A DNA stretch of 58,379 nt from a virus (Duplodnaviria; Caudoviricetes), in the IMG/VR virus record IMGVR_UViG_3300027965_000006, positions 1 through 58,379 of that record; one strand, written 5' to 3'. Within the stretch, counting starts at the first letter, position 1; each line of letters opens with the position of its first letter. The notes beneath the pieces were generated by a model. The model ran no database searches and was not told where the DNA came from. It was given only the letters and a program-made list of their open reading frames with translations. Position numbers and translations under genes: made by a program. Shown here piece after piece: positions 14,606 to 41,607 of this stretch.

Positions 14606-15652
14606 TCAGCTCTTCGCGAGCGCCCATTCGCCGATCGGCTCGCCGCGGGCGATGTCGCGCGGGCATGTCCGGCCGATCAGGTCGGGCAGCCTGCTCGGCG
14701 GCAGGCCGTGGCCGGGCCGGATCGAGCGGATGTTGGTCTCCGTGAAGGGGGACCCGGCCGCGATGTCGGCAACCGCGAATACGGACCGCCGCAGCGGGCG
14801 GTGCATGTCCTGGCTCGGCGCCGGCGATGGCTGGCAGGCCGCCCAGGCGTTGCGGACCGCGGCGGCCATGGCGGCGAATTCCTTCGGCTCGAGGCTGAAC
14901 GTGGCGTCAGGCGTGGTGCTGGACAGGGTGAAGTGCTTCTCGACGATGGCCGCGCCGAGGACGGTTGCGGCGACGGGGATCTCGATGCCGGTGGTGTGGT
15001 CGGACAGGCCGGTCTCGGCGGCAACGCCGAAGGCCTGCCGCGCCCACAGCGGACCCCGCAGCCACGCCATGCGGCGCAGATTGGCCTCCCCGGCCGGGAC
15101 GGGATAGCCCGATACGCAGTGCAGGAGCGCAGCACCGTCGGCACCGTGCGTCGCATGAAGGGCGCTCCGGATTTCCTTGTCGCTCGCCATCCCGGTGGAG
15201 AGGATCATCGGCTTGCCGAGCCGCGCGGCGTAGCGGATGAGCGGGGCGTCGACGAGCTCGAACGACGCGATCTTGATTGCGGGGGCCTCGAGGCGCTCCA
15301 TGAGGTCGACGGACGATTTGTCGAACACCGAGGCGAACCAAGTTATCCCCAGTTTTTTTGCATGCTCGGCAATTCGGGGAAACCACGCGAACGGCGTCTG
15401 CGCGCGCCGGTAGAGGTCGTAGAGCCGCTGTCCCTTCCATGGCCCGTCGGCGATAACGAACTCCGGCCGGTCGCAGTTGAGCGTGATGGTGTCGGCCTCG
15501 TAGCACTGGAATTTTACACAATCCGCGCCAGCTGCCTTCGCCGCATCCATCGTGCGCAGCGCGAGGTCGAGGTCGCCGCCGTGGTTCGCGCCGATTTCGC
15601 AAATCAGGTATGGCGGCTGGTCAGCGCCGATTGATCTTCCGTCGATATTCAT
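14606..15652 (-). CDS. pseI: Pseudaminic acid synthase-like (NeuB family with C-terminal SAF domain)
   Basis: Motifs EIGANHGGD, GADCVKFQCY, KIASFEL, ILSTGMA, LLHCVSGYP, GLSDHT, EKHFTL, RRSVFAVADI...IRPGHGL. Confidence 0.93.
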   Translation of the reverse strand: MNIDGRSIGADQPPYLICEIGANHGGDLDLALRTMDAAKAAGADCVKFQCYEADTITLNCDRPEFVIADGPWKGQRLYDLYRRAQTPFAWFPRIAEHAKKLGITWFASVFDKSSVDLMERLEAPAIKIASFELVDAPLIRYAARLGKPMILSTGMASDKEIRSALHATHGADGAALLHCVSGYPVPAGEANLRRMAWLRGPLWARQAFGVAAETGLSDHTTGIEIPVAATVLGAAIVEKHFTLSSTTPDATFSLEPKEFAAMAAAVRNAWAACQPSPAPSQDMHRPLRRSVFAVADIAAGSPFTETNIRSIRPGHGLPPSRLPDLIGRTCPRDIARGEPIGEWALAKS

Positions 15653-16039: not shown

Positions 16040-16486
16040 TCACCTTAGACTGTCGAATTTGGCGACGCGCTCGATGTCGACCGTTTCTGCCTTGATCAGC
16101 CCCTCGCAGACCATCCGCTCAATAATTCGCCGGTCGTAATGCGTCCCGTAACAAGTCGCCTGATCCCCAAGACTTGGAGAGTAGGTGCGATGATCGCCAT
16201 GAATCGATGTGTATTGTCGGCCGATGCGCAGGTCACTTAGGAACTTCGATGCTTGCTTCTGGTACTCGTGTTCCGTCAGCGGGTTTTCCCCAAACCTCCC
16301 GCCATTCTTGCCGAAAATCGCGACAAATGGTTGCCCCTGACGCTCCCGGTGTTCGATTCCTATTCCACCGCCGGCTGGCGTTGCGACTGAGACTGGCCAG
16401 TCTGGTGGAAATGCCGATAACATTTCCATGAAATCGGCGACGGTTTCTGGACCGTCCCACATGCTCTCGTATTTTTTATTGGTCAT
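16040..16486 (-). CDS. Hypothetical protein (lower-GC insert)
   Basis: 148-aa ORF with GAGG SD, overlapping the pseC stop. Confidence 0.65.
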   Translation of the reverse strand: MTNKKYESMWDGPETVADFMEMLSAFPPDWPVSVATPAGGGIGIEHRERQGQPFVAIFGKNGGRFGENPLTEHEYQKQASKFLSDLRIGRQYTSIHGDHRTYSPSLGDQATCYGTHYDRRIIERMVCEGLIKAETVDIERVAKFDSLR

Positions 16487-17609
16487 TTGCTAGCCTCATA
16501 TACGCGGCGACTTTCTGGAACGCCGTGCCGATCTGCCTGATCTGCGCGAGCGTCGGGTCCCACGCGCAGTTTTCGAAATAGAACAGCCGATTGTCGTGCA
16601 GGTCCTCCGCGACGCGGCACGGCCGCGCGAACTTCGCGAACGCGGGCAGGCGATAGAGCGGGGCCACATAGCCCTCGACGAGCGGGACGCCCTCGGCCGC
16701 GAGCGCCTGCACGAATGCCGCGCGTCGCCGTGCGCCGCCGTCGATCAGGAACGGGATCGTGTAATAGACGTGCGTGCAGCCAGGCCGCACCACCGGCGGC
16801 CGCAGCCCCGCAATGTTGCCGATCGCGTCGATGATCGCCTCGGCCTTCTCGACGCGATCCTGCACGAGGCGCTTGCCCTTCTTCAACTGCGCGAGCGCGA
16901 TGGCGGCGGTAACTTCGGTCATGCGCAGATTGAGGCCGACGCGGTCGCCCGCCATCTCGCCGTGATTGATGAAGTGGCGCATCTTGAGCGCGAGATCGGC
17001 GTCATCGGTCGTGCAGACGCCTCCCTCGCCGCTGTTCCAATGTTTGTGGACATTCATGCTCCAGCAGCCGATATGCCCGATCGTGCCCGCGTAACGTCCG
17101 CGCTCTATCGCGAACGGGGACTGAGCATTGTCCTCAATGATTGGACGAGCAGGACTCATGAACCTGGACATCTCGTTCACCTGAGCTGGATGACCAAACA
17201 GATTCGTGACGATGGCGCACTTCACGGCGATGTTGATTCCGGAGCTTCCGAAGCTTTCATCTTCGCAATCGTCAAAATGCAGTTTCGCTCCCAGCAATGC
17301 CGGCGCGGCCGCGCTTGCGCTCATCGTGAGACAGGGGACGGAGACTGGATCGCCGTGTTCGACGCCGGCCGCAGCACATGCCGCCAACAGTCCACTCGTC
17401 GCCGAATTGCACGCGACGGCATTCTTGACCCCGAATTCCTTGCACCACGCCTCCTCAAGCGCGCGCACCCAATAGCCGCCGCGCTCCTGCCCGCCGATGA
17501 AACCGGACAGCGGCCAGCTCATCGCGGTGACGGCGGCCTCGCGCTCCTCCTTGCCGATCGAGCGGTAGGGAAGAATCGGCGTGGTGACGGCGGGGCGCGG
17601 GTCCGTCAT
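16476..17609 (-). CDS. pseC: DegT/DnrJ/EryC1/StrS sugar aminotransferase (PseC-like)
   Basis: Motifs ACNSATSGL, NLFGHPA, IEDNAQSP, PLP-lysine SMNVHKHWNSGEGG, GLNLRMTE. Confidence 0.88.
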   Translation of the reverse strand: MTDPRPAVTTPILPYRSIGKEEREAAVTAMSWPLSGFIGGQERGGYWVRALEEAWCKEFGVKNAVACNSATSGLLAACAAAGVEHGDPVSVPCLTMSASAAAPALLGAKLHFDDCEDESFGSSGINIAVKCAIVTNLFGHPAQVNEMSRFMSPARPIIEDNAQSPFAIERGRYAGTIGHIGCWSMNVHKHWNSGEGGVCTTDDADLALKMRHFINHGEMAGDRVGLNLRMTEVTAAIALAQLKKGKRLVQDRVEKAEAIIDAIGNIAGLRPPVVRPGCTHVYYTIPFLIDGGARRRAAFVQALAAEGVPLVEGYVAPLYRLPAFAKFARPCRVAEDLHDNRLFYFENCAWDPTLAQIRQIGTAFQKVAAYMRLANDQ

Positions 17610-17618
17610 TTGGGCTAT

Positions 17619-18605
17619 TCAGCCTTCGTTTTTGAAACTGTTGAAACCAACTTGACGGCGCATGCCACCTCGGCCATCCGAGGCGATGGCCTCGCTTCGC
17701 ATCTCGTCGAGGCGTTGAAAAACCTCGTCCTCAGGCTGTTCAAAGCAGCGCGCGGCAACGATAACCTCTCGCAAATGGGCGATGCTGTAGCCCTCGGATC
17801 GCTTTACCCAACGAGCCAGCGTCACGTCGTCAAGCGCCGGCTCTTTGGCTTTGAAGTAGACCCGTCGCGCCTCGGCAGAGGGCATGTCCACCAGCATGAT
17901 CGTATCGAAGCGCGATGGGCGGTCGACAAATCGGCGATCGAGATATTCGGGATAGTTCGTCGTCGCGACGTGTACGACGTTGGAAATCTGCGTCTCGCCA
18001 TCCAGCAGCGCCAGAAATCCATGATCGCCGTGGCGCTGCACCAGCGCGTCGAGGTCTTCCATGATCGAGATCATGGGGCGCGCCGGCTCGATCCGGCGAA
18101 GGACCGAGATGCACATCGTTGCAAGCGCCGGGTCTTCGACGAAGATCACGACGCCGTTGTGAGACCGAACAAGTTCCTGCGTCATCTGCCAGATGGCACT
18201 CGTCTTGCCGCTGCCCGGAGGACCCCAAAGAAGGAGGCCGCGCTTGAAGGTAAAGCCGCGCTCGGCAAAATTGGCGCGCAGGGTCCAGAACTTTCGGAAT
18301 TCGGATAGCAGCTTCTCGACCGCCCCATCTGGCAGATGAAGGAGACTGTCGATCTCGATAGGCATCTTTTCGAGGTACGGGCCGCGATTGGAGATACGGC
18401 ACCGATAGGCGCCCGCGGGGATTTCCTTGACGACATCAGTGACGGGAAAGAACGCATCGCCACTTTGCGCCCAGCATCTCGCGCTCGCGGCAATCTGCGC
18501 CCATTCGTTGTCAACGGGCGCCACAGCCTGCGACGCTTCTGGGTAACCCTGGGAGTGGGCCCCTACCATCGTCCCAACCCGGTTGGCAAAACTGGCGTTG
18601 CTCAA
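17619..18605 (-). CDS. AAA+ ATPase (start uncertain)
   Basis: Walker A GPPGSGKT, Walker B IMEDLD, SRH ATTNYPEYLD..FVDRPSRFD. Confidence 0.9.
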   Translation of the reverse strand: MSNASFANRVGTMVGAHSQGYPEASQAVAPVDNEWAQIAASARCWAQSGDAFFPVTDVVKEIPAGAYRCRISNRGPYLEKMPIEIDSLLHLPDGAVEKLLSEFRKFWTLRANFAERGFTFKRGLLLWGPPGSGKTSAIWQMTQELVRSHNGVVIFVEDPALATMCISVLRRIEPARPMISIMEDLDALVQRHGDHGFLALLDGETQISNVVHVATTNYPEYLDRRFVDRPSRFDTIMLVDMPSAEARRVYFKAKEPALDDVTLARWVKRSEGYSIAHLREVIVAARCFEQPEDEVFQRLDEMRSEAIASDGRGGMRRQVGFNSFKNEG

Positions 18606-18616
18606 TTGCGCTCCCT

Positions 18617-19480
18617 TCAAGATCGGGCCTCCAGCGCCGCGCGCAATTCATCCACGCTCATGCGCCGGGCCTTGTCGCTGCTGTTGCCGGGTCCCATGCT
18701 CTCGTGTTTCTTTTCGAACGCGGGAAGCCCGCGCACGTCCATCGTCGCGCCCATGGCTTCGGCAAGGTCGCCAAGCCGATAGGCGGGCAGTGTCGGTATC
18801 ATCACCTCGCCGCCCTTCATGGTCTCGATCGTGTTGAGCACGAGGTCGACGGCCTGATCCATCGTCATGAAGAATCGCGTGCAGTCGGGATCGGTGACCG
18901 GCACCGACGGCGCGCCGCCGGCGATGATCTCCTTCCACGTCGGGACGACGGAGCCGGTTGACGCCCAGACATTTCCATATCTGCAGACGGCGAAGATCGG
19001 ACCGTTCCAGCCGCGCGTGTTGTTGGCGTTGAGGAACAAGGATTCGGCGAACGCCTTGCTCGTGCCATAGGGGCTGACGGGTTCGAATGCCTTGTCGCTC
19101 GACAGGGCGACGACGCGGCACACGCCGGCGTCTTGCGCGGCCTCGATCACGTTGGTGGCTCCGTCGATGTTGGTTTTCTTGACCTCGATCGGGTTGTAGG
19201 CGCCGACCTCGATGCGCTTGAGCGCCGCGGCATGAACGACGGTCTCAATGCCGTGCATGGCGCGGTGCAGGCGGTCGCGGTCGCGGACATCGCCGATGAA
19301 CATGCGAAGCGTGCCGAACTGATCGAGCGCGGATAGTTCGCGCAGCATGGCGGCCTGCCGGTGTTCGCTGCGCGAATAGATCACGATGCGATGGGGCGGG
19401 GACGGCAAGCGGAGCAGGCGCTTGGTGAACGCCGTTCCAAACGCACCCGAGCCGCCGGTGATGAGGATGCTGCCGATCAT
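18617..19480 (-). CDS. pseB: UDP-GlcNAc 4,6-dehydratase (PseB/FlaA1-like)
   Basis: ATG 19480 with GGAG SD. Motifs ITGGSGAFG, IGDVRD, HAAALK, ALSSDKA, YGTSK, RYGNVWASTGSV, TRFFM, EKKHE. Confidence 0.92.
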   Translation of the reverse strand: MIGSILITGGSGAFGTAFTKRLLRLPSPPHRIVIYSRSEHRQAAMLRELSALDQFGTLRMFIGDVRDRDRLHRAMHGIETVVHAAALKRIEVGAYNPIEVKKTNIDGATNVIEAAQDAGVCRVVALSSDKAFEPVSPYGTSKAFAESLFLNANNTRGWNGPIFAVCRYGNVWASTGSVVPTWKEIIAGGAPSVPVTDPDCTRFFMTMDQAVDLVLNTIETMKGGEVMIPTLPAYRLGDLAEAMGATMDVRGLPAFEKKHESMGPGNSSDKARRMSVDELRAALEARS

Positions 19481-19626
19481 CTGCGCTCCCACGGCCGGGC
19501 GCATTTGCGGCGGGACACGAAGATCAGTTTGCGCAAAAAATCCTCCCATTCGATCGCGGTCCGGTATTGCTTTGCGGTGCAGCGCCATTCGCGATCGAAC
19601 CAAAAGTGGAGCAAGTCGAGCATCAC
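19477..19626 (-). CDS. 49-aa hypothetical protein
   Basis: MMLDLLHFWFDREWRC...; 4-nt overlaps with both neighbours. Confidence 0.45.
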   Translation of the reverse strand: MMLDLLHFWFDREWRCTAKQYRTAIEWEDFLRKLIFVSRRKCARPWERR

Positions 19627-21650
19627 GATGCCCTCACCATCGGCGCGATCGTCGCGCCCTCGAGGCGCCGCGCGATATTGTCGTGATCAAGTGCCTCGCG
19701 CATGATCGCCAGCGTGTGGTCATAGGATTTCAGAACGCGCTTGATATCGCCTTGCGTGTGGGCATAGCAGATGTTGTGCGATCCGATGATCAGGGTCCCG
19801 CTCGCGATCATCTCTTTGCGGAACAGAGCCCAGAGCTGGTCGACCGTCGCATTCTCGTGCGCCTTCATCGAAATGCGCTTGAGCGGGGCCTGACCATAGA
19901 GGCCGATCACGTCACCGAGTCCGTGCGCGCGGATGAGGTCGGTAACGTCGCTGCGCAACGTCTCGCCGGTCTCCCAAATCTTGTCGATGACGTTCTCGCG
20001 CTCCATCTTCGCAATGGTCGCGATCGACGCCGCGAGCGACAGCGTCTCGCCGCCGAACGTGCCGGAGAAGAACACGCACGGGTTCGGCGGCTCCAGCTTG
20101 CGCATGATATCGGCGCGCCCGACCAGCGCGGACAGCGGCATGCCGTTCGCCATCGCCTTGCCGAAGCAGGCGAGGTCCGGCGTCACGCCGTAGTATTCCT
20201 GCGCACCGCCGAGTGCGAAGCGGAAGCCGGTGATGACCTCGTCGAAGATCAGGAGGGGTCCTTCTTTGTCGCAGACATTACGCAGGTATTGCAGATATTG
20301 TGGGTTGCCTTCCGGCTCGACGATGATTGCAGCTACGTTGGAGAGGTCGTCGGGCGGACACTGGCTGAAATCAAGTCGTGCCGTCAGCTCCTTGACCGCA
20401 GTCGGCACGCCGAGATCGCGGAACGCGCCCGCGATCGACCAGTCATGCCAGCCATGATACCCGCCGCAGATGAGCACGCGGTCGCGGCCCGTGTAGGCGC
20501 GGGCGAGGCGGATCGCCGCCGTCGTCACGTCGGAGCCGTTCTTGCCGAACCGCACCATCTCGGCGCACGGGATCAGCCGCGTGAGCTTTTCGGCGAGCTG
20601 CGCTTCGAGTTCAGTGGAGAGACTGAAAGAGGCTCCAGATGCAAGCTGAGTGCGCACGGCACGGTCAACGTCTGCGTCACGGTAGCCAAGAATGTTTGGC
20701 AGCAGTGCGGACACGAGATCGACAAACTCGTTCCCGTCGATATCCCAACAGACTCCTCCCTGCCCGTGACTGAGGAAGAGCGGGGAGGGCTGGGGGAATT
20801 GAACGAAAGACTTGCTGAAGGTTTGCGCTGCGAGCGGGATGACTTTGTGCGCGCGCTCGAACTGCGCCTGCGACCTTTCGTATGACCGCGGGATGATCGG
20901 CTCATTGGCGATGGCCTCATAGTAACGTTCGTTCATCGGGTGGTGCCGGTTGATCTTGCGCAGCTCAGGCTTGCGGTCGAGCACGGCAAGGATATCGAGG
21001 TAGCGCGCGGGCGGGCCGTGCAGCTCGTTGGCGATGGCACTGCAGAACCGATAGTCGTTTTTGGTGTCGAGCACCCAGCGCTCTTTGTGCAAGCCGGGGA
21101 TCGGACACACGACCGCCGCGGCCGGCAGGCGCGAGCGGTTGCGCTGGATGAAGGTCGTGACGCACTCACGGTCGATCGGCCGCGTTGCGACTTCATGCGC
21201 GAACGCGAGCGAGTCGAAGGTGAATGCTTCGACATCAAGCCCGTCCGGCCATGTACGCGGATCGATGTTGGAGACGTAGTCGGCGCCGGTCTCCTTCTGC
21301 AGACGCACGACCTCGCCGATAACGTATGGATCGATGAACGGGCAGTCTCCGGTGATGCGCACGACGATGTCGGCCTCGACCTCTGCGGCTGCGCAATAGA
21401 CGCGGTCGAGAACGTCGTTCTCCGAACCCTGGTAGCAGGGAATATCATGGCGAGCGCACCACGCCCTGATCGGATCGTCGCCGACGAGCCCGGTCGTGGC
21501 GACGACGACTTGGTCGACGCCGGCCGCAGCGCGTGCAGCAGTGTAGACCCAGTGCAGCACCGGACGACCATCGCGGCCGAGCGGCATCAGCACCTTGCCG
21601 GGCAGGCGAGTCGAGCCCATGCGGGCGATGATGACGGCGGTTACGGTCAT
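19623..21650 (-). CDS. SpsF/PseF-like acylneuraminate cytidylyltransferase fused to a class III (GSA-aminomutase-like) aminotransferase
   Basis: N-terminus: ARMGSTRLPGKVL, GSENDVLDR, RITGDCP, PDGLDVE. C-terminus: QTFSKS, DIDGNEFVD, FGKNGSD, GYHGWHDW, FDEVITGFR, FGKAMANG, SGTFGG. Confidence 0.92.
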   Translation of the reverse strand: MTVTAVIIARMGSTRLPGKVLMPLGRDGRPVLHWVYTAARAAAGVDQVVVATTGLVGDDPIRAWCARHDIPCYQGSENDVLDRVYCAAAEVEADIVVRITGDCPFIDPYVIGEVVRLQKETGADYVSNIDPRTWPDGLDVEAFTFDSLAFAHEVATRPIDRECVTTFIQRNRSRLPAAAVVCPIPGLHKERWVLDTKNDYRFCSAIANELHGPPARYLDILAVLDRKPELRKINRHHPMNERYYEAIANEPIIPRSYERSQAQFERAHKVIPLAAQTFSKSFVQFPQPSPLFLSHGQGGVCWDIDGNEFVDLVSALLPNILGYRDADVDRAVRTQLASGASFSLSTELEAQLAEKLTRLIPCAEMVRFGKNGSDVTTAAIRLARAYTGRDRVLICGGYHGWHDWSIAGAFRDLGVPTAVKELTARLDFSQCPPDDLSNVAAIIVEPEGNPQYLQYLRNVCDKEGPLLIFDEVITGFRFALGGAQEYYGVTPDLACFGKAMANGMPLSALVGRADIMRKLEPPNPCVFFSGTFGGETLSLAASIATIAKMERENVIDKIWETGETLRSDVTDLIRAHGLGDVIGLYGQAPLKRISMKAHENATVDQLWALFRKEMIASGTLIIGSHNICYAHTQGDIKRVLKSYDHTLAIMREALDHDNIARRLEGATIAPMVRAS

Positions 21651-21856
21651 TTGCTGCTATTGATCTGTATGTTCATCGATTGGAGCATGTCGCTTGCGTG
21701 CACCCATGCGACGCCGTTCCAAACCTCGAAATCGGTTATCTCCTCCGGAGGAGTTCCTGGCGGGTAATCTCCGGTGACATGAACGTCGCCGAGGTAGGGA
21801 TTCTCGGGGCGCGGTGAGGGGCCCGGATAGTCCGGGTATCGGAGCTCCCGTTTCAT
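21647..21856 (-). CDS. Hypothetical protein
   Basis: 69-aa ORF, ATGA-coupled on both sides. Confidence 0.6.
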   Translation of the reverse strand: MKRELRYPDYPGPSPRPENPYLGDVHVTGDYPPGTPPEEITDFEVWNGVAWVHASDMLQSMNIQINSSK

Positions 21857-22728
21857 GTCGGCAGCCCCGCCATCTTGCGCGCGTCGAGGCAGAGCCGCAG
21901 TACGGCGAGTCCGTCCTCTCCGGTGGCGCCGCGCGTTTCCTTGCCTTCACAGCGATCGACGAAGGCGCGCATCTCGGCCATGTAGTCGTCGTCCCATGAC
22001 GCGAAGCCGCTTGCGGACATTCGATTTGTTCCCACTACGAGATCAGAGGATCGTCTTTCCAGGTCCACCGCGATCAGGCCATGCTCGCCTGCGATGACGA
22101 AGGTGCGAAAACTCGGAGCGGTGACGTAGTCGAGATGCACAGTCGTCCGCGTCATGTCGTCGTGCACCAAAAAGAGATCAGCTATTTCGTCTCCATCCGT
22201 CGAAGCCGCAGAGGCCAAAGTCGCCGGACCGAGCAGATGCAGCGCAAGATCGAGTTCGTGTGCTCCCCAGTTCAAAATGACGCCATCCCGCCGATAGGCC
22301 GGGCGGTTATTTTTCTGAGCGCAGGTGAAGTTAGCCCATAAAGGCTTGCCGATCGCAGTGGCGCCGAGCCAGCGCTTTGCGTCAATGACCGATTGATGAA
22401 ACCGCAACATGCACCCGACCATCACCTGCGCGCCGTTCTTCTTTGCCAGCGCGAGCAGGTCGGTGATGACCTCCGGGCTGCCGGTCGCGATCGGCTTCTC
22501 GACGAAGATGTGCTTGCCGCGCTCGGCTGCGGCGCGGATGCCGCCGGAATGGAATGCGCTCGGCGTCGCGATCACCACGGCATCGCAGATGTCGTAGACC
22601 TCGCGCTCGAAACTCATGTCCATCCGGCCGGCGGGGTCGAAGTGGATCACGTCATGCCCGAGCGCGGAGAGATTCGCGGCGTGGCGCGAGCCGATCGATC
22701 CCGCGCTGCCGAGGACGCCGATCTTCAT
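21853..22728 (-). CDS. Gfo/Idh/MocA-family oxidoreductase
   Basis: MKIGVLGSAGSIGSRH, VIATPSAFH, IFVEKP, LRFH, HELDL. Confidence 0.9.
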   Translation of the reverse strand: MKIGVLGSAGSIGSRHAANLSALGHDVIHFDPAGRMDMSFEREVYDICDAVVIATPSAFHSGGIRAAAERGKHIFVEKPIATGSPEVITDLLALAKKNGAQVMVGCMLRFHQSVIDAKRWLGATAIGKPLWANFTCAQKNNRPAYRRDGVILNWGAHELDLALHLLGPATLASAASTDGDEIADLFLVHDDMTRTTVHLDYVTAPSFRTFVIAGEHGLIAVDLERRSSDLVVGTNRMSASGFASWDDDYMAEMRAFVDRCEGKETRGATGEDGLAVLRLCLDARKMAGLPT

Positions 22729-23330
22729 GGGCGCTCCTCGATCAGATGACCCTTGCGCAGTGCGGTCACGCATTCGTCGCCAATGATCCGGCGCTCCATC
22801 AGCATGTACCAAGGATGCGCCAGCCACAGTTTTGCGAAGTCGAAATGATAGGCGGTCACGCCGGCGTTGTGCTTGTAGAAGCGAGCGAAGGACTCGCCCT
22901 TCACGGCAAAGTCGTGGATGACGAGAACGCCGGTGTAGAAGGTCAGCACGCGGTTGACCTCGGCGGCGATGCGCAGCCAATCGGCGGGATCGGTCAGATA
23001 CAAACAGAACCCGCAGATCACGAGATCGAACATCTCGCGGCCAAGCGGAAGGGAATCGGCGGTGCCGCGCGCGGCCGGGACGGAGTTGAGCCCGCCCGCC
23101 TCGGCGACCGCCTTCGCGCTCGGGTCGACGCCGAACACCTCGCATCCGTATTGTGCGCGCAGCCGAGCGAGCCGCCATCCGTTGGCGCAGCCTATTTCGA
23201 GCACGCGCTTCGGCTGCAGGCGGAGATCGGCGATGACCTCGCTCACCGGATCGTGCTGGCCGAGCTTGGCGCGGTTGCGCTCCAGCCACGCATCGCCTTC
23301 CGATTCGAGCATGATGTCGGTCTGGCTCAC
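22725..23330 (-). CDS. Class I SAM-dependent methyltransferase
   Basis: GTG start; EGDAWLERN, VLEIGCANG, GVDPS, FDLVICGFCLY. Confidence 0.88.
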   Translation of the reverse strand: MSQTDIMLESEGDAWLERNRAKLGQHDPVSEVIADLRLQPKRVLEIGCANGWRLARLRAQYGCEVFGVDPSAKAVAEAGGLNSVPAARGTADSLPLGREMFDLVICGFCLYLTDPADWLRIAAEVNRVLTFYTGVLVIHDFAVKGESFARFYKHNAGVTAYHFDFAKLWLAHPWYMLMERRIIGDECVTALRKGHLIEERP

Positions 23331-23731
23331 GGACGAAGCTCGTAGGTGTGTTGCAGCGCCTTGAAGCCGAGGCACTGGAACATGCGGGCCGAGCGTGCGT
23401 TGCCCGGCGCGACGTTGGCGAGATAGCGCTCACGCGGATGCGCCTTCATCAGCAGGCTAATCGCGGCCGGCGCGTAGCCGCGACCCCAGTACGACTTGAA
23501 GATCGACACGCCGATCTCGTCATCGACCGTGAGATAGATCGCGCCGACATATTCGCCGTCGACCTCGATGAGGTACCACTCGGTATAAGGTCTGGAGGCG
23601 AAAAATCTCGCGTGCTCGACGAGCGCCGGCATCTTGCGATGCGAGATGTTCGCTTCGGCCGGACGCTCCGCGAGCAGGTCGTAGAGCAGCGGCATCGCGC
23701 CGTGCTCGGTATAGGCATCGACAAGTTTCAC
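23327..23731 (-). CDS. GNAT acetyltransferase (PseH-like)
   Basis: GTG start; YVGAIYL...EIGVSI...WGRGYA...ANVAPGNARSARMF..LGF. Confidence 0.85.
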   Translation of the reverse strand: MKLVDAYTEHGAMPLLYDLLAERPAEANISHRKMPALVEHARFFASRPYTEWYLIEVDGEYVGAIYLTVDDEIGVSIFKSYWGRGYAPAAISLLMKAHPRERYLANVAPGNARSARMFQCLGFKALQHTYELRP

Positions 23732-24243
23732 CGGAACCTCCCGTAATAGACGGCGGCGGTGAGTTCGTTCCCGAGCATGAAATGCGCGCGGCGCTCGCCC
23801 TCGAAGGTGAAGCCGGACCGCTCCGCGACCTTGCGCATGGCGTGGTTCGCCGCCATGAATCCGCATTCGAGCTTGCGGAAGCCGCCCGCATCCTTGTCGA
23901 GCAGCCATGCCGATGCGGCCTTGAACGCCTCAGTCGCAAATCCCTTGCCCCATTGCTCGCGGTCGCCGATCATCACGCCGAGATCGGCGATGTGATTGGG
24001 CTCGTCGGCGTCGGCTGAGATGTTGCCGATGTGCGCGCCGTCGGCGACGTGCTCTATGGCCCAGAGATGGCTGCCGGGCGGGCGCGAGCGGATGTAGGTC
24101 AGTTGGGATGACAACGAATGGTGCGCATGCCGTTGTTCGGAGAACGCGACAACTTGCGGATCACGCAACCAATCGACTTGGCGCTGCGTGGCCTTGGTCA
24201 GCGGCCGCAGGACGAGGCGCTCGGTGTTCAAAGTTGGCGTCAT
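23728..24243 (-). CDS. GNAT acetyltransferase (RimJ/RimL-like)
   Basis: LNTERLVLRPL, HIGNI, IGDREQWGKGFATEA, NHAMRKVAERSGFTFEG. Confidence 0.9.
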   Translation of the reverse strand: MTPTLNTERLVLRPLTKATQRQVDWLRDPQVVAFSEQRHAHHSLSSQLTYIRSRPPGSHLWAIEHVADGAHIGNISADADEPNHIADLGVMIGDREQWGKGFATEAFKAASAWLLDKDAGGFRKLECGFMAANHAMRKVAERSGFTFEGERRAHFMLGNELTAAVYYGRFR

Positions 24244-24554
24244 CGATCTTTGATCCAGTCGAACCAAGATCGGAAAAACCATCGTCGCCATTCGAATCCG
24301 GCAAATCCGATTTCTCTGCCGGTCCAGGCTGCCGCCGAGCCTTGAATGGTGGCCGCAGGGGATAAGTGTCGATAGCGAATCGGCGGAAGCCAATTCCATG
24401 CACAGCCGGCACTCAGGCGCCACACGATATCGCCCTCGCTTACATGATTGCGGCGCAATAGACCGAATGAAATTTCTCGGTCGGCGTAGTAATAGAACGA
24501 CCGCCCGATGTAGAAATATCCGAATTTGTCGTGACGAATGCGCATCGCGGTCAC
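24240..24554 (-). CDS. Aromatic-rich hypothetical protein
   Basis: Fills the gap with 4-nt overlaps at both ends. Confidence 0.45.
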   Translation of the reverse strand: MTAMRIRHDKFGYFYIGRSFYYYADREISFGLLRRNHVSEGDIVWRLSAGCAWNWLPPIRYRHLSPAATIQGSAAAWTGREIGFAGFEWRRWFFRSWFDWIKDR

Positions 24555-25140: not shown

Positions 25141-25415
25141 GCCGAACTCCCGGCCGTGAGGGCTTTTTCGAGCAGAACGCCCATCATTGAGGCGGTTGAG
25201 CGCATTTCCTGCACCGCGAGCGCCTGAATCGCCTCGCGCACGGTCCGGCGCAGGGTGATTCGTGTCTGCCAGCTCTCAAATTCGCCCTCGATGCGGCGCT
25301 GCATGTGCTGATTGATACCAAACTGACACCAAAACGCAATAAGAATGAGTAACGGTTCATCTTATCCACCGTTTTTGCTATGCTTTCGGTCGATGCGCGC
25401 TTCGGAGCAGCAAAA

Positions 25416-31911: not shown

Positions 31912-32316
31912 ATGTCGATTGCCAGTGCCAAGAAGATCGAGGTAATCGCCCAGGCGAAGGACCCGAAACAGGCGATTTTTGATGCGGTGGGCGACCTCAC
32001 CGGCGTCGAGGTGTTTTCCGACCTCGTGCTGGTCGGCACCTTCATCCGCAACGAGAAGACGGCGGGGGGAATCATCATGCCGACCTCGCACCTGCAGGAG
32101 GACGAATTCCAGGGCAAGGTCGGGCTGGTGCTCAAGTCGGGCCCGCTCGCCTGGCTCGATGGCGAGAATGAGCCCGGGAGCAACGCGCGGCCCGGCACCT
32201 GGGTCGTCTATGCCATCAAGGACGGCTGGCCGGTGCAGATCAACGGCACCGCCTGCCGCTTCGTGCCCTACGAGAAGCTGCGCGCGCGCGTCGCCGACCC
32301 GAAGGCGGTGTTCTAA
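31912..32316 (+). CDS. GroES-like co-chaperonin
   Basis: DLVLV...EKTAGGIIMP (mobile loop)...GLVLKSGP...GTWVVY. Confidence 0.8.
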   Translation: MSIASAKKIEVIAQAKDPKQAIFDAVGDLTGVEVFSDLVLVGTFIRNEKTAGGIIMPTSHLQEDEFQGKVGLVLKSGPLAWLDGENEPGSNARPGTWVVYAIKDGWPVQINGTACRFVPYEKLRARVADPKAVF

Positions 32317-34977: not shown

Positions 34978-35892
34978 ATGCCCGTCGCACTCAGTCAAAT
35001 CCGCGACCTCCTGCTCCCCGGCCTGTGGGGCATCGACGGCAAGTATCCGCAGATCGAGCGCCAGTGGCCGCAGATCTTCAAGCGCGTCCAGTCGAACATG
35101 GCTTTGGAGCGCCGCGCCGCGATGCGCTACCTCGGCTACGCCCAGCTCAAGAACGAGGGCCAGCCCACCGCCGCCGACAACAACATGGGGCAGCGCTACA
35201 TCTACAACGCCGAGCACTTCGAGATCGGCCTGATGTACGCGATCACCCGCAAGGCGATCGACGACAATCTCTACAAGAACGAGTTCGGGCCGAACAACGA
35301 CGGCCTGATGGAGGCGTTCAAGGAGACCGAGGAGGTCTACGCCGCGAACGTGCTCAACAACGGCAACGTGTTCAACGTCGTGACCCAGGGCGACGGCGTT
35401 TCGCTGATCAACACGGCGCACCCGATCGACGGCGCGACCATCGCCAACCAGCCCTCGCCGGACGTTTCGCTCAACGAGACCTCGCTGCTCAACGCCGCGA
35501 TCACCGTGCGCTCGACCTGGAAGAGCAATGCCGGTCTCAAGATTCACGCGCGCGGCCAGAAGCTGATCGTCCCGGCGAATCTGGAGCCGATCGCGGCGCG
35601 CCTGTTCCGCTCCGAGTTGCGCGTCGGCACCGGCAACAACGACATCAACGCGGTCAAGGAAATGGAGCAGTCCTTCAAGGAGGGCTACTTCGTCTACGAC
35701 TACCTGACCTCGTCGTTCGCCTGGTTCGTCAAGACCAACATCGATGGCCTCGTGTTCTTCGAGCGCAAGCCGTTCGAGTCGGACATGAGCGTCGAGTTCA
35801 CGACCGACAACCTGCTGGTCAAGGGTTATCAGCGCTACATCCCGGCCTACTACGAGTGGCGCTCCCTCTACGGCACCTATCCCACCTCGTAA
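34978..35892 (+). CDS. Major capsid protein
   Basis: 304 aa; LLLPGL, KNEGQ, AITRKAIDDNLY, ANVLNNG, GDGVSL..TAHP, KLIVPANL, YLTSSFAWF; strongly biased codon use. Confidence 0.88.
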   Translation: MPVALSQIRDLLLPGLWGIDGKYPQIERQWPQIFKRVQSNMALERRAAMRYLGYAQLKNEGQPTAADNNMGQRYIYNAEHFEIGLMYAITRKAIDDNLYKNEFGPNNDGLMEAFKETEEVYAANVLNNGNVFNVVTQGDGVSLINTAHPIDGATIANQPSPDVSLNETSLLNAAITVRSTWKSNAGLKIHARGQKLIVPANLEPIAARLFRSELRVGTGNNDINAVKEMEQSFKEGYFVYDYLTSSFAWFVKTNIDGLVFFERKPFESDMSVEFTTDNLLVKGYQRYIPAYYEWRSLYGTYPTS

Positions 35893-35904: not shown

Positions 35905-36882
35905 ATGAGCGTCACTGCAAACAGCGGCCCGCAGGTCAATTTCGGCGTCACGCTGACCTCGTCGGGCGCGGACCTGGAGCACAACCCGGATCGCGGGCCT
36001 TCGGTCGTCGACCTCGGCGAGATGATGGTCGACCCGCGGCCGCCGTTCTGCTTCCAGCCGGGGCAGGCTTCGTCGAAGGCATTCTACGGGTGGGCGGGCG
36101 CCTTCGGCGGCCCGGTGGTGGATCAGGCGCCGTCGGCCACTTCGACCAACAACGTCTCGTCGGCGCAGGTGCCGACCGGCGGCACCGCGCTCACGCTCGC
36201 GACCAACACGTCGCTCGGCTTCGGCGCGGCGGTGACGATCAACGCCTACGAGGGCGGCACGGTGTCGATCCGACCGATCGACGGCGCCATGGGCGGTCAG
36301 GCGTTCGGCGTCTCCGGTGGCATCAACATCTGGGACCCGACCAAGGCGGTCACCCGCACGCTCAACATCAACGGCTCCTCGAACGGGTCGAGTGCGGAGG
36401 CGTGGTCGATCTATGGCCGCGATCTCTATGGCCAGAAGGTCACCGAGACCGTGGTCGGCGCCTCGATCTCGGTCAACTCGAAGAAGGCCTACAAGTACAT
36501 CTCCTCGATCGTGCCCTCGACGGTGAACGGCGCGATCGGCTCGACCGTGGTCACGGTCGGGCTGAACGACGTGTTCGGCTTCCCGCTGCGGGTCGATCAT
36601 CCGGCCTATGTCACGGTGTGGGCCGGCCCGGCGTCGAGCGCGACCTTGGTCAACATCTCGACTGGCGCGCACACGTTCGCGGTTACCTCGGCGGCGTCGA
36701 ACACCACGGGCGACGTGCGCGGCACGATCGCGACGTCTGGCGTCGTCGGCTCGGTGTCGAATGCGTCGAACTGGAAGATCGTGATGTTCATCTCGCCGAG
36801 CGTGCAGAACCTGCAGGGTGTCTCGCAGGGATCGAGCTACCCGTCCGGCCTCGTCGGCCTGACGCAGTTCTCGTCGAACTAA
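35905..36882 (+). CDS. Virion structural protein, Ser/Thr/Gly-rich
   Basis: Follows the capsid gene; DVFGFPLR...TTGDVRGT. Confidence 0.8.
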   Translation: MSVTANSGPQVNFGVTLTSSGADLEHNPDRGPSVVDLGEMMVDPRPPFCFQPGQASSKAFYGWAGAFGGPVVDQAPSATSTNNVSSAQVPTGGTALTLATNTSLGFGAAVTINAYEGGTVSIRPIDGAMGGQAFGVSGGINIWDPTKAVTRTLNINGSSNGSSAEAWSIYGRDLYGQKVTETVVGASISVNSKKAYKYISSIVPSTVNGAIGSTVVTVGLNDVFGFPLRVDHPAYVTVWAGPASSATLVNISTGAHTFAVTSAASNTTGDVRGTIATSGVVGSVSNASNWKIVMFISPSVQNLQGVSQGSSYPSGLVGLTQFSSN

Positions 36883-36897
36883 CGGAAGGAGCGAACC

Positions 36898-37125
36898 ATG
36901 GCGCATCGCCACAAGGTCCATCACCGCGCCAAGGGCGGCCGCGTGGTCTACGAGGGCAAGGGCAGCCACGTCGAGCACGAGGCCGAGGAGAGGAAGCACG
37001 GCGGCCGCGTGAAGCATCACGACGGCCACAAGATGCACGGTCACAAGGGCAAGCACCGCTTCGCGCGCGGCGGCCGCGCCGGCAGCGACAAGCACCCTTT
37101 CAGCTCGGCGCACCGGGGAGCGTAG
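36898..37125 (+). CDS. Small His/Lys/Arg-rich basic protein
   Basis: AAGGAG SD; RAKGGRV, RKHGGRV, FARGGRA. Confidence 0.8.
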   Translation: MAHRHKVHHRAKGGRVVYEGKGSHVEHEAEERKHGGRVKHHDGHKMHGHKGKHRFARGGRAGSDKHPFSSAHRGA

Positions 37126-37323: not shown

Positions 37324-38004
37324 ATGCAGCCGATCTACGTCACCAAGAAGATCACGACCCTGGCGTCGTCGAACCTCGTCGGCAGCGTGTCGACGGCGGC
37401 GACGTCGGTCGCGACGGTGAACTCGTCCAACATGCCGCTCGATACCCAGCGGCGCATCGTCTTCACCTCGACGGCGGCCGATACCTCCTCGCTCAAGCTC
37501 ACGTTCACGGGCACGCGGGAAGGCGGCGGGACGGTGGTTGAATCGGTCACTGGGTCGACCGCGGGCGCGGGCACCAACGCCACCACGCTGTCGGACTTCC
37601 TGACCGTGACGGCGATAGGATTCTCCTCCAATGCCAACGTGCCGGTCCTCATCGGTGTCTCCTCGGCGGCCGGCACGCCATGGAAGCCGGCCAACTGGCA
37701 GACCACGCCGATCAACCTGTCGGCCGCGGTCGTTCTCAACTCGTCGCAAGCCTCGGCGACATGGGAATTCACCCTCGACGACGTTACCGGGACGTATCCC
37801 AACCCGAACGTCACAGTGCCGTCGGTGTTTGCCTCGACCGGCATTTCCGGCGCGGTCGGCTCGAGCGGGGCGAATTTCGGCTCGTCCGGGACCATGACGA
37901 CGGCATCGATCTCCTTCCCGGTCGCCTACTGGCGGATGACGCTGACCTCGTCGTCCTCGACCTATCTGCTCGACGCCACCGTCTTGCAGGCGGGCATCGG
38001 ATAG
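37324..38004 (+). CDS. Virion structural protein, extremely Ser/Thr-rich
   Basis: Hand count about 71 Ser+Thr in 226 aa; ends TVLQAG. Confidence 0.8.
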   Translation: MQPIYVTKKITTLASSNLVGSVSTAATSVATVNSSNMPLDTQRRIVFTSTAADTSSLKLTFTGTREGGGTVVESVTGSTAGAGTNATTLSDFLTVTAIGFSSNANVPVLIGVSSAAGTPWKPANWQTTPINLSAAVVLNSSQASATWEFTLDDVTGTYPNPNVTVPSVFASTGISGAVGSSGANFGSSGTMTTASISFPVAYWRMTLTSSSSTYLLDATVLQAGIG

Positions 38005-38046
38005 GGCATAGATTAGAGCGGTCGTTCACTCTTTTGAGGCCGCTTG

Positions 38047-38976
38047 ATGGGGATCCTGACGCCGACCTTCGCCGACAAGCAACGCGCCAATGGCGGCGCC
38101 CCGCACGTGGTCGCGGCGCATGAGCCGTTGGCGACCGGGGAGATGATGCCCTACGCCTTCTCGTCCCCCGCCCTGCCGGCCGAGCCGAAGCCTGCCCCCG
38201 TCGCCGAGTCGAAGCCGCTCAAGGTCGCGCTGATCGGCACCGCACCGTCCTCGCGCATGCTGGCCCCCTATGGCGACCCGTCGTGGACGATCTGGGCCTG
38301 CTCGCCCGGCAACATGAAGCAGATTCCGCGTTTCGACGCCTGGTTCGAGATCCACGCCAACCTGCTGTGGCCCGAGCACGCCGCCTACGGTCCGCCCTAC
38401 CTCGAATGGCTCAAGACGCTGACCTGCCCGGTCTACATGCAGGACCAGGTGCAGGTGCCGAACGCGACCACCTTCCCGATGGAGGAGCTGGTCGCCGAGT
38501 TCGGAAACGACTTCTTCACGTCGTCCTTCGCCTGGATGATGGCGTTCGCGATGAAGCAGGGCGCCAAGGAGATCGCGCTCTACGGCATCGACATGGCGAG
38601 CCGCGACGAATACATCCTGCAGCGGCCCGGCTTCTTCTTCTTCCGCCACATCGCCCGCACGCGCGGCATCACGGTCTCGGCCCCGCACGAATCCGACATC
38701 ATGCAGTCGCCGCCGCTCTACGGCTACAGCGACTCGCATCCGTTCGGCCGCAAACTGGCGGCGCGGCGCCAGGAGATCAAGGGCCGCATCAACGACATGT
38801 CGAACCAGCACGCGCAGCTCGCCAACAACCTGACCTACCTGCGCGGCGCCGACGAGGACATGGACTACGTGCAGAACATCTGGGCCGGCGTCGCCGACCA
38901 GATCAGGCTGCTGCAGCACGAGAACGACCGGCTCAAGCAAGAGAACCAGCAGCTTCGTCTCGCGCCGCCGGGGTGA
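38047..38976 (+). CDS. Putative sialyltransferase-fold (GT42 CstII / Maf-like) nonulosonate transferase
   Basis: KVALIGTAPS..., WTIWACS, FTSSFAWMMAFAMKQGAKEIALYGIDM parallel the CstII motifs as recalled (KVIIAGNGPS, TSGVYM..VAIALGYKEIYLSGIDF); C-terminal coiled coil. Confidence 0.65.
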   Translation: MGILTPTFADKQRANGGAPHVVAAHEPLATGEMMPYAFSSPALPAEPKPAPVAESKPLKVALIGTAPSSRMLAPYGDPSWTIWACSPGNMKQIPRFDAWFEIHANLLWPEHAAYGPPYLEWLKTLTCPVYMQDQVQVPNATTFPMEELVAEFGNDFFTSSFAWMMAFAMKQGAKEIALYGIDMASRDEYILQRPGFFFFRHIARTRGITVSAPHESDIMQSPPLYGYSDSHPFGRKLAARRQEIKGRINDMSNQHAQLANNLTYLRGADEDMDYVQNIWAGVADQIRLLQHENDRLKQENQQLRLAPPG

Positions 38977-38979
38977 GCG

Positions 38980-41607
38980 GTGACGCTCTCGCTCACCCAC
39001 GCCAAGGTCTCCAGCGTCACGGCCATCGCGCCGCCGACCGCCCTGGTCACCCCGACCGACTGGAACGCGCAGCACACGATTTCGGCCGCTGGCCTCTCAG
39101 TACTTGGCGTCACCGGATCGGCCGCCACCAGCGTCGCCGACATCACCGGCACCGCGAACCAGGTCCTGCGGGTCGATTCGGCCGGATCGACGCTCGCCTT
39201 CGGGGCGATCAATCTCGCCAGCACCAGCGCGGTCGCCGGCATCCTCGGCGGCGCCAACGGCGGGACCGGCGTCAACAACGGCACCTCGACCATCACGGTT
39301 GCCGGCAATTTCACGGTGGCGACCAACGGCGGCACGCTCGCGTTCGGCGCGGCGTCGAAGACCCTGACCGTCAACAACTCGCTCACGCTCGCCGGCGCCG
39401 ATGCGACGACGATGACGTTCCCGAGCGCGTCGGACACTGTGATGGGTCTCGGTGCGGCGCAGGCCGTTACGGGAAACAAGACTTTCAATTCCGGTACGCT
39501 GCTGCTCGCGGGCGCGACATCGGGCACAATCATACTCAAGGCCGCGGCGGTCGCCGGGGCGAATACGATCACACTCCCGGCCGGAACGACAGATTTCTCT
39601 GCAACCGGAGGCGCCGGCCAATACGTCAAGCAATCCGGCGCTGGCGCGGCCCTCACGGTCGGCACAATTACGGCGACTGATCTTCCGGGATCGTTCTCAG
39701 GCTTTGCCAATCCGACCGCATCGATCGGCCTGACGGCGGTCAATGGTGTTGCCACGACCGCGATGCGTTCCGATGGCGCGCCCGCGCTCTCGCAGGCCAT
39801 CGCGCCAACGTGGTCGGCAACACACATCTTCTCCGCAGCGACGATGTTGCAGTTACAGAGCCCGTCCGTTCGCACATGGAGCCTCTCCTACGACGGCACG
39901 CAGAATTTCGGCTCTGGCAGCGCCGTTAAGGCACTGAAACTCTCGTCCGACCTTCCCTCGCCGGTGCCGATCTGGGTGACCGAATACGGGATTCTCCACG
40001 TCGGGAACGTCTTCGCTCAGCAGCCCAACCTTTCGCCCATGAGCGACTCGACCGGGCCGGGCATCCGCCTTTTCGGCGACATCCTGGTCGGCGACGTGCG
40101 ATCGTTCGGTGATCTCGTCACCACCGTCACCGGAGCCGTCAACAACGGCTCCGGTCTCATTCGCCTCACTGCAAGCACGACGGGGCTAGCGACCGGCAAC
40201 GTCATTCAGGTCGGCGGCGTCGGCGGCGTTCCCAATGCGACGGGCGTGTGGACCATCACGGTCATCGACGGTACCCACATGGACCTGCAAGGTTCGACGT
40301 TCGCGGGATCATTCACGACAAACGGCTGGTTTGGCACCGGCGCGAACTCGATGGGGCTCGGCTGGAAAGAGCCGGGCGCGGTACCGACCTCGACGCGGCT
40401 CTACAGCGGCTCCGACCTCAATGTGGACGGCACCGGAGGCGGCTACATCATTGCGCATCCCGACAGCACTCTTACGCAATGCGCGGACCCCGGCGCGCTC
40501 GAGCTTGTCGCCTACGGCTCCTCCGGGTCAGGGACCTACTTCAACAAGGTTCGCATCGCCGCGCGCAACGGGGTCGGCACCATCACCGATCTTGCGGTTT
40601 TGGGGACATCCGGCATCACCTGCTCGGTAAACCTCACGGTCGCAACCGTCTTCGGAGGATCAGCCGCAGGTTCGACGCTCAACCTGCAGAGCACGTCTAA
40701 CGGCGCGCCGTCAGGCGACAAGATCACGATGACGACCGGCGGCAGCGTGCGCTGGACGATGCTCTCCAGCGGCAACATCGGCTTCGGCACCGAGACCAAT
40801 CCGACGCAAGGTTTCTGGACCTATTCGAAGAACGTCTCGACCGGGTTCTCCGCCAGCGGCGTCACGACAAATGGACTGGTCTTCGTAGGGGCAGATTCTG
40901 CCAGTGGCGGCTACGCGACGTTTACGTTTGCCCAGGCCGGCATCAACCAGTTCATGCGCGCGGAGGGCACCGGCGCGAGCCCAACGGCCCTCGGTGCGGG
41001 GTCTCTCATCGGTGGAATAGTTGCGGGCGGAGCAACCGGCGCGGCGACTTGGACCTCTGCGACCAAGGGGCGGATACTCTTTGTCTCGACCGAGTCCGGC
41101 GTCTGGTCGAGCACCAATCAGGGCTGCGGTATCGAATTTGATACGACGGCGGCCGGCGGCACGACACGCGCGCAGGCGATGCTGCTCAAGGCCGGGCTCA
41201 TCATCGGCGCCGGCACGACCGATCCGGGCGCTGGCGCGCTGCAGGCGAGCGCCGGCATCACGTCCACCGGCGCCACCTCCGGCATCGGTTACGCCACGGG
41301 AGCAGGCGGCACCGTCACCCAGGCAACCAGCCGAACCACGGGCGTCACCCTCAACAACGTGACTGGCGCCATTACGCTCGTGAGTGCGGCCGGCTCAGCC
41401 TCGTTTCAGTCCTTCACGGTGAGCAATACCGCCGTTGCGGCAACTGATGTCATAAAAGTCAACCAGAAATCAGGCACCGACAAATACGAGATATTCGTCA
41501 CCAACATCGCCGCCGGCAGCTTCCAGATCACGTTCGCCACCACGGGCGGGACGACCACTGAGCAGCCGGTTTTCCAGTTTGTCGTCATCAAGGGAGCGAA
41601 CGCTTGA
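38980..41607 (+). CDS. Tail fibre / receptor-binding-like protein
   Basis: 875 aa Gly/Ser/Thr/Ala-rich; ANGGTG motif; C-terminal GIGYATGAGGTVTQATSRTTGVTLN domain. Confidence 0.75.
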   Translation: MTLSLTHAKVSSVTAIAPPTALVTPTDWNAQHTISAAGLSVLGVTGSAATSVADITGTANQVLRVDSAGSTLAFGAINLASTSAVAGILGGANGGTGVNNGTSTITVAGNFTVATNGGTLAFGAASKTLTVNNSLTLAGADATTMTFPSASDTVMGLGAAQAVTGNKTFNSGTLLLAGATSGTIILKAAAVAGANTITLPAGTTDFSATGGAGQYVKQSGAGAALTVGTITATDLPGSFSGFANPTASIGLTAVNGVATTAMRSDGAPALSQAIAPTWSATHIFSAATMLQLQSPSVRTWSLSYDGTQNFGSGSAVKALKLSSDLPSPVPIWVTEYGILHVGNVFAQQPNLSPMSDSTGPGIRLFGDILVGDVRSFGDLVTTVTGAVNNGSGLIRLTASTTGLATGNVIQVGGVGGVPNATGVWTITVIDGTHMDLQGSTFAGSFTTNGWFGTGANSMGLGWKEPGAVPTSTRLYSGSDLNVDGTGGGYIIAHPDSTLTQCADPGALELVAYGSSGSGTYFNKVRIAARNGVGTITDLAVLGTSGITCSVNLTVATVFGGSAAGSTLNLQSTSNGAPSGDKITMTTGGSVRWTMLSSGNIGFGTETNPTQGFWTYSKNVSTGFSASGVTTNGLVFVGADSASGGYATFTFAQAGINQFMRAEGTGASPTALGAGSLIGGIVAGGATGAATWTSATKGRILFVSTESGVWSSTNQGCGIEFDTTAAGGTTRAQAMLLKAGLIIGAGTTDPGAGALQASAGITSTGATSGIGYATGAGGTVTQATSRTTGVTLNNVTGAITLVSAAGSASFQSFTVSNTAVAATDVIKVNQKSGTDKYEIFVTNIAAGSFQITFATTGGTTTEQPVFQFVVIKGANA

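Follow-up and report, generated by a model that had tools for sequence, protein, structure and literature searches.

What an enzyme gene is doing among the head and fibre genes of a phage is the question raised by positions 38047-38976 (+ strand) of the virus record IMGVR_UViG_3300027965_000006 (Duplodnaviria; Caudoviricetes). The window, i.e. the whole stretch analysed, is this 58,379-base record, whose completeness is estimated at 79%. The gene encodes a soluble protein of 309 amino acids (aa), a candidate transferase for a sugar of the CMP-pseudaminic-acid type (CMP, cytidine monophosphate; Pse, pseudaminic acid). An earlier note, made from the sequence alone, had described it as a CstII/Maf-like nonulosonate transferase, part of a self-contained system coating the virion with a sialic-acid-like sugar. 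The first part of this description is well supported by sequence comparison and by the structure model, and is likely to be right. The best overall explanation, which probably holds, is that a soluble enzyme transfers a phage-made sugar of this type to an acceptor; we infer both the donor and the chemistry.

The protein was modelled with AlphaFold2 from a 75-sequence alignment (mean predicted local distance difference test, pLDDT, 87.1, and about 97 across the core). Among the Foldseek matches to the PDB that were listed, all those at E<=0.001 are GT42 sialyltransferases (CstII, Cst-I and the Pasteurella enzyme). The next matches are a thiamine pyrophosphokinase, human ST8SiaIII, an archaeal HPPK and the Maf glycosyltransferase. 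Structural comparison gave Z scores of 11.0 for Cst-I (2p56; 152 residues, 19% identity), 10.3-10.6 for CstII (20-22% identity) and 10.6 for Maf (5mu5; 155 residues, 11% identity), the aligned range being residues 55-222 for all three. Searches of viral predicted structures gave the same picture. The proposed GT42/Maf fold is thus borne out by the model and the Foldseek search.

In sequence and profile searches of the PDB, the sole matches are GT42 enzymes (9c08 and CstII 1ro7), at E values of 0.2-1, below significance; the sequence leans towards GT42 over the other members of the superfamily. The nucleotide-binding motifs of GT42 are found, aligned by HMMER to the same 9c08/1ro7 stretch. They consist of the G-T-A-P-S loop (GxxPS; residues 65-69, 38236..38250, + strand), which opens the core and corresponds to the G-x-G-P-S loop of GT42, and of the T-S-S...G-A-K-E-I-A-L-Y-G-I-D motif (residues 159-183, 38518..38592, + strand), which corresponds to TS...GYxEIYLxGIDF of GT42. 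Both had been quoted in the earlier note; GxxPS, placed there near the N-terminus, sits after a 58-residue extension. The residue numbers of the motifs and of the core refer to the 310-aa form of the open reading frame (ORF), which starts at TTG.

Judged from its sequence and model, the protein is a member of a new family of the sialyltransferase-fold superfamily, so far found mostly in phages. The family comprises 821 homologues in a 90%-clustered protein collection and 3530 representatives at 50% identity (E<=0.001). What the members share is the segment of residues 59-283; many of them consist of a single stand-alone chain of about 225 aa. In 75/75 diverse members, seven residues are kept without exception (G65, H104, G181, D183, E189, Q193 and Y226). 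In the loop, G65 is kept in 75/75 members, P68 in 63/75 and S69 in 56/75, and the adjacent S70 in 66/75. The 120 homologues listed carry no precomputed Pfam domain (0 of 120); their source names are "hypothetical protein" and, once, "regulator of replication initiation timing". Scans of the protein against Pfam, PHROGs and NCBIfam gave only C-terminal coiled-coil noise or nothing, and Pfam scans of the 75 family members gave no common family and no match to PF01973. In a language-model atlas, the nearest clusters are viral; of the clusters to which Pfam assigns a family, MptE-like/DUF115 comes closest, with a score that gives no more than a lead. Bacterial genomes scanned with an alignment of the close clade yielded no relative.

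A homologue was found in 1/50,697 deposited phage records, that of Microcystis phage Mvi-Yong1342-1 (PP496355.1, 34781-35584; L001, 7902-8705), where it precedes the annotated terS and terL. Its deposited label, "type 11 methyltransferase", was rejected: no methyltransferase Pfam domain was found in it. One further member, P0242 (504 aa), carries the family domain at residues 279-499 behind an N-terminal part with a weak, below-cut-off match to PhyH dioxygenase.

The donor is indicated by genes that accompany the family. A NeuB/PseI gene is present in 7/12 records of close relatives (5/5 of those that are at least 90% complete) and in 15/22 records of more distant members (10/12 of the complete ones). 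NeuB-like genes occur in 3/50,697 deposited phage records. Two unrelated podovirus lineages carry both the family and NeuB/PseI. Lineage 1 comprises the phages that resemble the window, whose portal and adaptor are of SU10 type; in lineage 2, the portal is of T7 type and the capsid belongs to another family. In lineage 2, PseB/PseF/PseI genes precede the family gene by 2-6 kb on the same strand (12 of the 48 loci examined). Among 14 lineage-2 records chosen by their portal only, seven contain the family, the same seven contain NeuB, and the other seven contain neither. In lineage 1, a complete relative (G036) lacks both the family and NeuB. These data do not amount to many independent events: the portal tree, which includes a mis-framed row (L230) on a very long branch, groups together the lineage-2 records that have both genes (86/96 support), and co-occurrence in lineage 2 is essentially one gain or loss. 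In five relatives (G001, G008, G009, G031 and G039; loci L003, L031, L019, L102 and L109), the NeuB/PseI match covers positions 1-120 of the model and then about 173-235, in ORFs of 215-274 aa, one of them with an in-frame TGA. To judge from these partial matches, the five could have a shortened or interrupted variant of the synthase.

Evidence of a donor link that is independent of phylogeny comes from gene fusions. In nine protein clusters (P0256 and P0270-P0277; 475-513 aa), a CTP_transf_3 cytidylyltransferase is fused to a complete family domain. The N-terminal half of P0277 is 44% identical to the PseF domain of the window (3e-29) and its other half is 32% identical to the transferase (4e-34). 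Elsewhere the same cytidylyltransferase is fused to NeuB, GNAT, DegT, PF04101 and aminotransferase domains; on a reading of the Pfam labels, it appears to fuse to its pathway partners. No fused form of 542-2000 aa was found in the search, and viral contigs searched for the 475-513-aa fusions gave no fused form and only three partial relatives. Taken together, the co-occurrence in two lineages and the fusions to a PseF-type domain support a CMP-nonulosonate donor; phylogenetic profiling with pseI/pseF had been proposed as a check.

The window itself encodes a donor pathway on its - strand, between 14.6 and 24.4 kb, as had been claimed. The pseudaminic acid synthase PseI (14606..15652; NeuB and SAF domains) scores 373.5 bits with TIGR03586, above the cut-off of 340.25. 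A DegT-type sugar aminotransferase follows (PseC/LegC-like, 16476..17609; PF01041, 5.9e-45), whose best NCBIfam matches are LegC and PseC, under their cut-offs. The PseB-like UDP-GlcNAc 4,6-dehydratase (18617..19603; PF02719, 2.7e-72) reaches 297.8 bits with TIGR03589, under the cut-off of 407.75, and is separated from the aminotransferase gene by the gene of an AAA ATPase (17619-18620, - strand, mid-cluster). The next gene (19623..21650) encodes a PseF-type cytidylyltransferase (residues 5-173; PF02348, 9.2e-24) fused to a class III aminotransferase (PF00202, 5.9e-46). The aminotransferase part is glutamate-1-semialdehyde aminomutase-like, and the same architecture of 675-690 aa is very common in the protein collection; this common fusion suggests an amino-modified nonulosonic acid. 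A GNAT acetyltransferase (23728..24423; PF13302, 2e-20) is a candidate for the PseH-type step. Two more genes lie in the sugar cluster: a GFO/IDH/MocA oxidoreductase (21853..23433), whose true start is uncertain since its longest ORF reaches the domain only at residue 283, the upstream part overlapping the methyltransferase gene in another frame; and this S-adenosylmethionine-dependent methyltransferase (22725..23375; Methyltransf_25, 9.6e-14; Methyltransf_11, 2.8e-12). A methyltransferase is also found in the Pse cluster of lineage 2. No PseG-type hydrolase was identified among the window ORFs that were scanned.

Several results weigh against the reading of the protein as a transferase that uses a phage-made Pse donor. 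The catalytic base of the known enzymes is described in PMC4202792 as His188 in CstII and His202 in Cst-I. H215 lies in the part of the chain that matches the CstII histidine, but is replaced by Pro in 30/75 members; conserved beside it are instead E216 (58/75), S217 (71/75) and D218 (56/75). The same source names Arg129, Asn51 and Tyr81 as acceptor-binding residues; in the profile alignment, a Phe stands opposite the Arg with which CstII binds its acceptor. By these alignments, neither this Arg nor the catalytic His appears to be conserved, and mechanism and acceptor probably differ in detail from those of CstII and Cst-I. The likeness to CstII and Maf in fold, and to GT42 in nucleotide-binding motifs, does not extend to the Pfam models of these families. 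PF01973 (MptE-like, DUF115) gave no match by hmmscan or when the window was searched with it directly at E<=10; PF06002 (CST-I) gave none by hmmscan at E<=10 or by direct search of the window, a negative that is weak alone since the direct search also matched none of 14 control genomes. Furthermore, pyrophosphokinases of the same fold (thiamine pyrophosphokinase 3lm8, Z 9.7, 8% identity; HPPK 8sd5, Z 9.4, 11% identity) come within about 1 Z unit of GT42 and Maf. This near tie assigns the fold to the GT42/Maf/MptE superfamily and cannot alone separate transferase from kinase chemistry.

On the donor side, three records contain the family and no NeuB, PseB or cytidylyltransferase gene: G013 (96% complete), G014 (88%) and the complete Microcystis phage. 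In these, either the donor is made by the host or the enzyme does something else. A fourth record, G018, has PseB and the cytidylyltransferase and lacks a NeuB match. That the gene lies next to the Pse cluster in lineage 2 may in part be an effect of the early/late junction, as G013 has the same layout without the cluster. A self-contained system is not a universal property of the family.

The mechanism proposed is the following. The phage pathway (PseB-like enzyme, aminotransferase, GNAT, methyltransferase, PseI and PseF-type enzyme) would make a CMP-activated sugar of the pseudaminic acid type. A soluble cytoplasmic enzyme of the sialyltransferase fold would bind this CMP-sugar and transfer the sugar to an acceptor, more tentatively one or more of the phage's own structural proteins, modified in the cytoplasm during assembly. 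The cytoplasmic location of the enzyme is assumed because no hydrophobic segment was found (the highest 19-residue Kyte-Doolittle mean is 0.75). Of the ORFs scanned, none besides this one looks like a glycosyltransferase, which would fit direct attachment of the sugar to protein, as by Maf, or to a host glycan.

A virion acceptor is favoured by the position of the gene. In lineage 1, all window genes that were detected keep one order, in 30/30 close loci and in 27 further loci: capsid gene, genes 35905, 36898 and 37324, transferase gene, hypervariable fibre region, genes 42249 and 42538, adaptor/nozzle genes. Identity across these loci is 54-70% for the enzyme and 32-57% for the genes next to it, and the fibre is not conserved; the enzyme, being more conserved than its neighbours, is not tied to one particular neighbour. 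Of the ORFs scanned from portal to adaptor, it is the sole one with an enzyme-like fold, as claimed; the others gave a GroES-like match, a capsid match or no family. In lineage 2 the packaging/portal genes follow it directly, beginning with a 535-aa ORF and the portal gene. This ORF was considered as a homologue of the Microcystis phage terL and rejected (no similarity, no Pfam family). In the window, the transferase gene belongs to the late operon and the donor genes to the other strand, among early-type genes; this would fit an acceptor that appears late, such as the structural proteins. From the late-operon synteny and the cytoplasmic enzyme, modification of the phage's own structural protein(s) during assembly (a "virion sialylation-like" system) is put forward tentatively, at somewhat less than an even chance. 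The fuller scenario is more tentative still: a widespread group of soil and freshwater podoviruses may make a modified (e.g. methylated) pseudaminic acid early in infection and place it on their own head or fibre proteins by means of a late enzyme, so that the released particles would be coated with it.

The richness of the structural proteins in Ser and Thr, on which the earlier note had relied for its acceptors, had to be discarded as evidence. The Ser+Thr fraction is 0.22-0.34 in the structural proteins of the window; it is 0.20-0.23 in the fibre-like ORFs of G036, which are equally rich in the absence of both transferase and NeuB.

The same chemistry could also be directed at the host. The acceptor would then be flagellin or pilin before export, or a lipid-linked precursor of lipopolysaccharide (LPS) or capsule, and the surface of the cell would be altered, with purposes such as a block to superinfection or keeping progeny off debris. 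This alternative is rather unlikely, and it is the rival that survives best. Host glycolipid (CstII, Cst-I) or flagellin (Maf) is the target of its nearest relatives of solved structure, the core is CstII-sized, and many members are just 225 aa long without an extra docking domain. In the three records without the sugar pathway, a host-made donor implies a host glycan system, and the virion proteins show no acceptor signal; both points favour a host acceptor. Conversely, the gene keeps its place within the late structural operon throughout the 30 close and 27 further loci, and its site before the packaging/portal genes in lineage 2 is late for a surface change of a cell near lysis. The acceptor-binding Arg of CstII appears not to be kept, and the extra domains by which Maf binds flagellin are absent from the 309-aa protein.

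An acceptor of neither kind would be needed if the protein were a nucleotide-dependent enzyme of the same fold other than a glycosyltransferase, e.g. one of the MptE/HPPK or thiamine pyrophosphokinase type with a small molecule or a modified base as its substrate. The near-tied Z scores are what would speak for it. The protein is 8-11% identical to the kinases and 19-22% identical to GT42, the Foldseek E values of the kinases are 100 times weaker than those of GT42, and sequence-level matches are to GT42 only. The cytidylyltransferase fusion and the co-occurrence with NeuB point moreover to a CMP-sugar, and such a function is improbable. A part in packaging or assembly that is either non-enzymatic or directed at DNA, e.g. 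that of an assembly factor or of a protein that modifies the DNA ahead of packaging, could be argued from the gene's place directly upstream of terS/terL in the Microcystis phage and of the 535-aa ORF and portal in lineage 2, from the conserved N-terminal peptide and from the basic C-terminal tails of relatives, but is very improbable given seven residues invariant in 75/75 members within the nucleotide-binding motifs of an enzyme fold, a "methyltransferase" label without Pfam support and, to our knowledge, no case of sugar transfer to DNA by a sialyltransferase fold.

The candidate sialyltransferase-fold enzyme can be set against the known systems. With GT42 (CstII and Cst-I of Campylobacter jejuni, Pasteurella 9c08), it has in common the single-domain GT-A-like sialyltransferase fold. 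It differs in its own invariant set (H104, E189, Q193 and Y226), in being phage-encoded within a structural operon and in its likely donor, a pseudaminic acid derivative and not N-acetylneuraminic acid (Neu5Ac). With Maf (PF01973, 5mu5), the central sialyltransferase-like domain is common to both at 11% identity; the 5mu5 chain has 632 residues with flanking domains, whereas the phage protein has 309 aa and most members about 225 aa. Maf genes have a flagellar context; the neighbours of the phage gene are head and fibre genes. The FlmG flagellin pseudaminyl/legionaminyl transferases of Caulobacter and relatives are a different protein class, for which no similarity was found in the searches made, none of them aimed at FlmG. 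From MptE/HPPK and the thiamine pyrophosphokinases (8-11% identity, no sequence-level match), the phage gene differs by a context of sugar activation, not of cofactor synthesis. Virion glycosylation in mycobacteriophages uses ordinary glycosyltransferases and host-made sugars; the window phage, in contrast, carries its own nonulosonic acid pathway and a candidate transferase of the sialyltransferase fold. An archaeal virus glycoprotein reportedly bears a host-made nonulosonic acid. In mycobacteriophages, phage-encoded glycosyltransferases are described as proposed or shown to glycosylate capsid and tail proteins (PMC11256854). A literature search with limited coverage of subscription journals found no publication on phage particles that carry nonulosonic acid, or on a phage-encoded Pse pathway paired with a transferase of the sialyltransferase fold.

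The full ORF of the gene is 38044-38976 (+ strand), and its 310-aa form starts at TTG. The ATG at 38047 is the likely start, on the following grounds: GAGG lies 8 nt upstream, the database entry P0001 has 309 aa and relatives begin with MTILTP. The boundaries 38047-38976 given in the earlier note are thereby confirmed. The GC content by codon position is 0.94 at the third and 0.45 at the second position; this high third-position value and the 821 homologues identify a real gene. The stop codon TGA is at 38974-38976 and the GTG of the 875-aa fibre ORF lies 3 nt on, at 38980, directly after the gene as had been noted.

Three parts can be distinguished in the protein. The N-terminal peptide (about residues 1-35, 38047..38151, + strand) is kept only within the phage lineage of the window, with the consensus MTILTPTFA..NGAAGP.H..AAHEPTREGE followed by a variable Pro/Ala linker; its pLDDT is 51-65 and it is absent from the stand-alone members of 225 aa. 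The catalytic core (residues 59-283, 38218..38892, + strand) is an alpha/beta domain with a long conserved helix (pLDDT about 97). The second C-terminal helix (38890..38961, + strand; residues 283-306 in the model) is coiled-coil-like, lineage-specific and variable in relatives, and gave weak ZapB/bZIP-type matches only; basic C-terminal tails are seen in the alignment of relatives. The N-terminal peptide and the second C-terminal helix of lineage 1 might dock the enzyme to something conserved.

From 25.4 kb on, the genes of the window are on the + strand: large terminase, SU10-type portal and adaptor, capsid and fibre-like genes. The recombination, methylase and sugar genes, before 25.4 kb, are mostly on the - strand. 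The major capsid protein (34978..35892, + strand) matches phrog_371 at 1.2e-8 and is 72-91% identical in relatives. A Ser/Thr-rich structural-module protein (35905..36882, + strand; Ser+Thr 0.22) is a possible acceptor; its AlphaFold model is unusable (pLDDT 37.6). The variable protein directly upstream of the transferase gene (37324..38004, + strand; Ser+Thr 0.31) is another. Between these two lies an ORF of 75 aa with a high content of His, Lys and Arg (36898-37125, + strand; Lys+Arg 0.24), whose position between the capsid-side genes and the transferase gene is kept in most relatives; two similar basic ORFs of 80 aa occur in the same region of G036.

The 875-aa fibre-like protein (38980..41607, + strand; Ser+Thr 0.25) has a match to phrog_18251 at its C-terminus. 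It is hypervariable among relatives, with similarity in 2 loci only and in short stretches. Two such stretches, residues 383-455 and 34-100, have counterparts of about 50% identity among the ORFs of a lineage-2 phage and of one lineage-1 relative (L058, L021). They hint at an exchange of fibre modules between the two lineages and hence at related hosts.

Some other features of the record were noted. The ORF of the large terminase (25380-28226, + strand) is unusually long, at 948 aa. Its residues 236-574 give a below-threshold intein-splicing match (23.5 bits, cut-off 35.8), and relative G036 aligns to residues 577-948 only; an intein or another insertion is possible by these alignments. A GroES-like co-chaperonin gene (31912-32316, + strand), conserved in relatives, lies within the head module. 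The early region contains a RecT/YqaJ recombination pair (477-2155), a D12-class adenine methyltransferase (2158-3078) and a TetR-family regulator (9860-10450), all on the - strand. In a scan for promoters and terminators, sites were no more frequent than in shuffled sequence.

The reading of the protein as a transferase of CMP-activated nonulosonic acid gives a testable function to a family with 3530 representatives at 50% identity and no Pfam, PHROGs or NCBIfam annotation. Whole pseudaminic acid pathways, near-absent in deposited phages (3/50,697), are common in two uncultured podovirus lineages, where they accompany this gene. Were the virion the acceptor, its particles would bear a sugar that is known elsewhere in flagella, capsules and LPS, with consequences for adsorption, stability, recognition by host defence and the application of anti-Pse reagents. 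It would then be the first phage-encoded decoration of virions with nonulosonic acid and the first function for a family of thousands. If the acceptor is of host origin, the enzyme would provide a new route by which a lytic phage remodels the surface of its host. With either acceptor, the protein would be a compact new candidate pseudaminyltransferase, a kind of enzyme of which few have been characterised.

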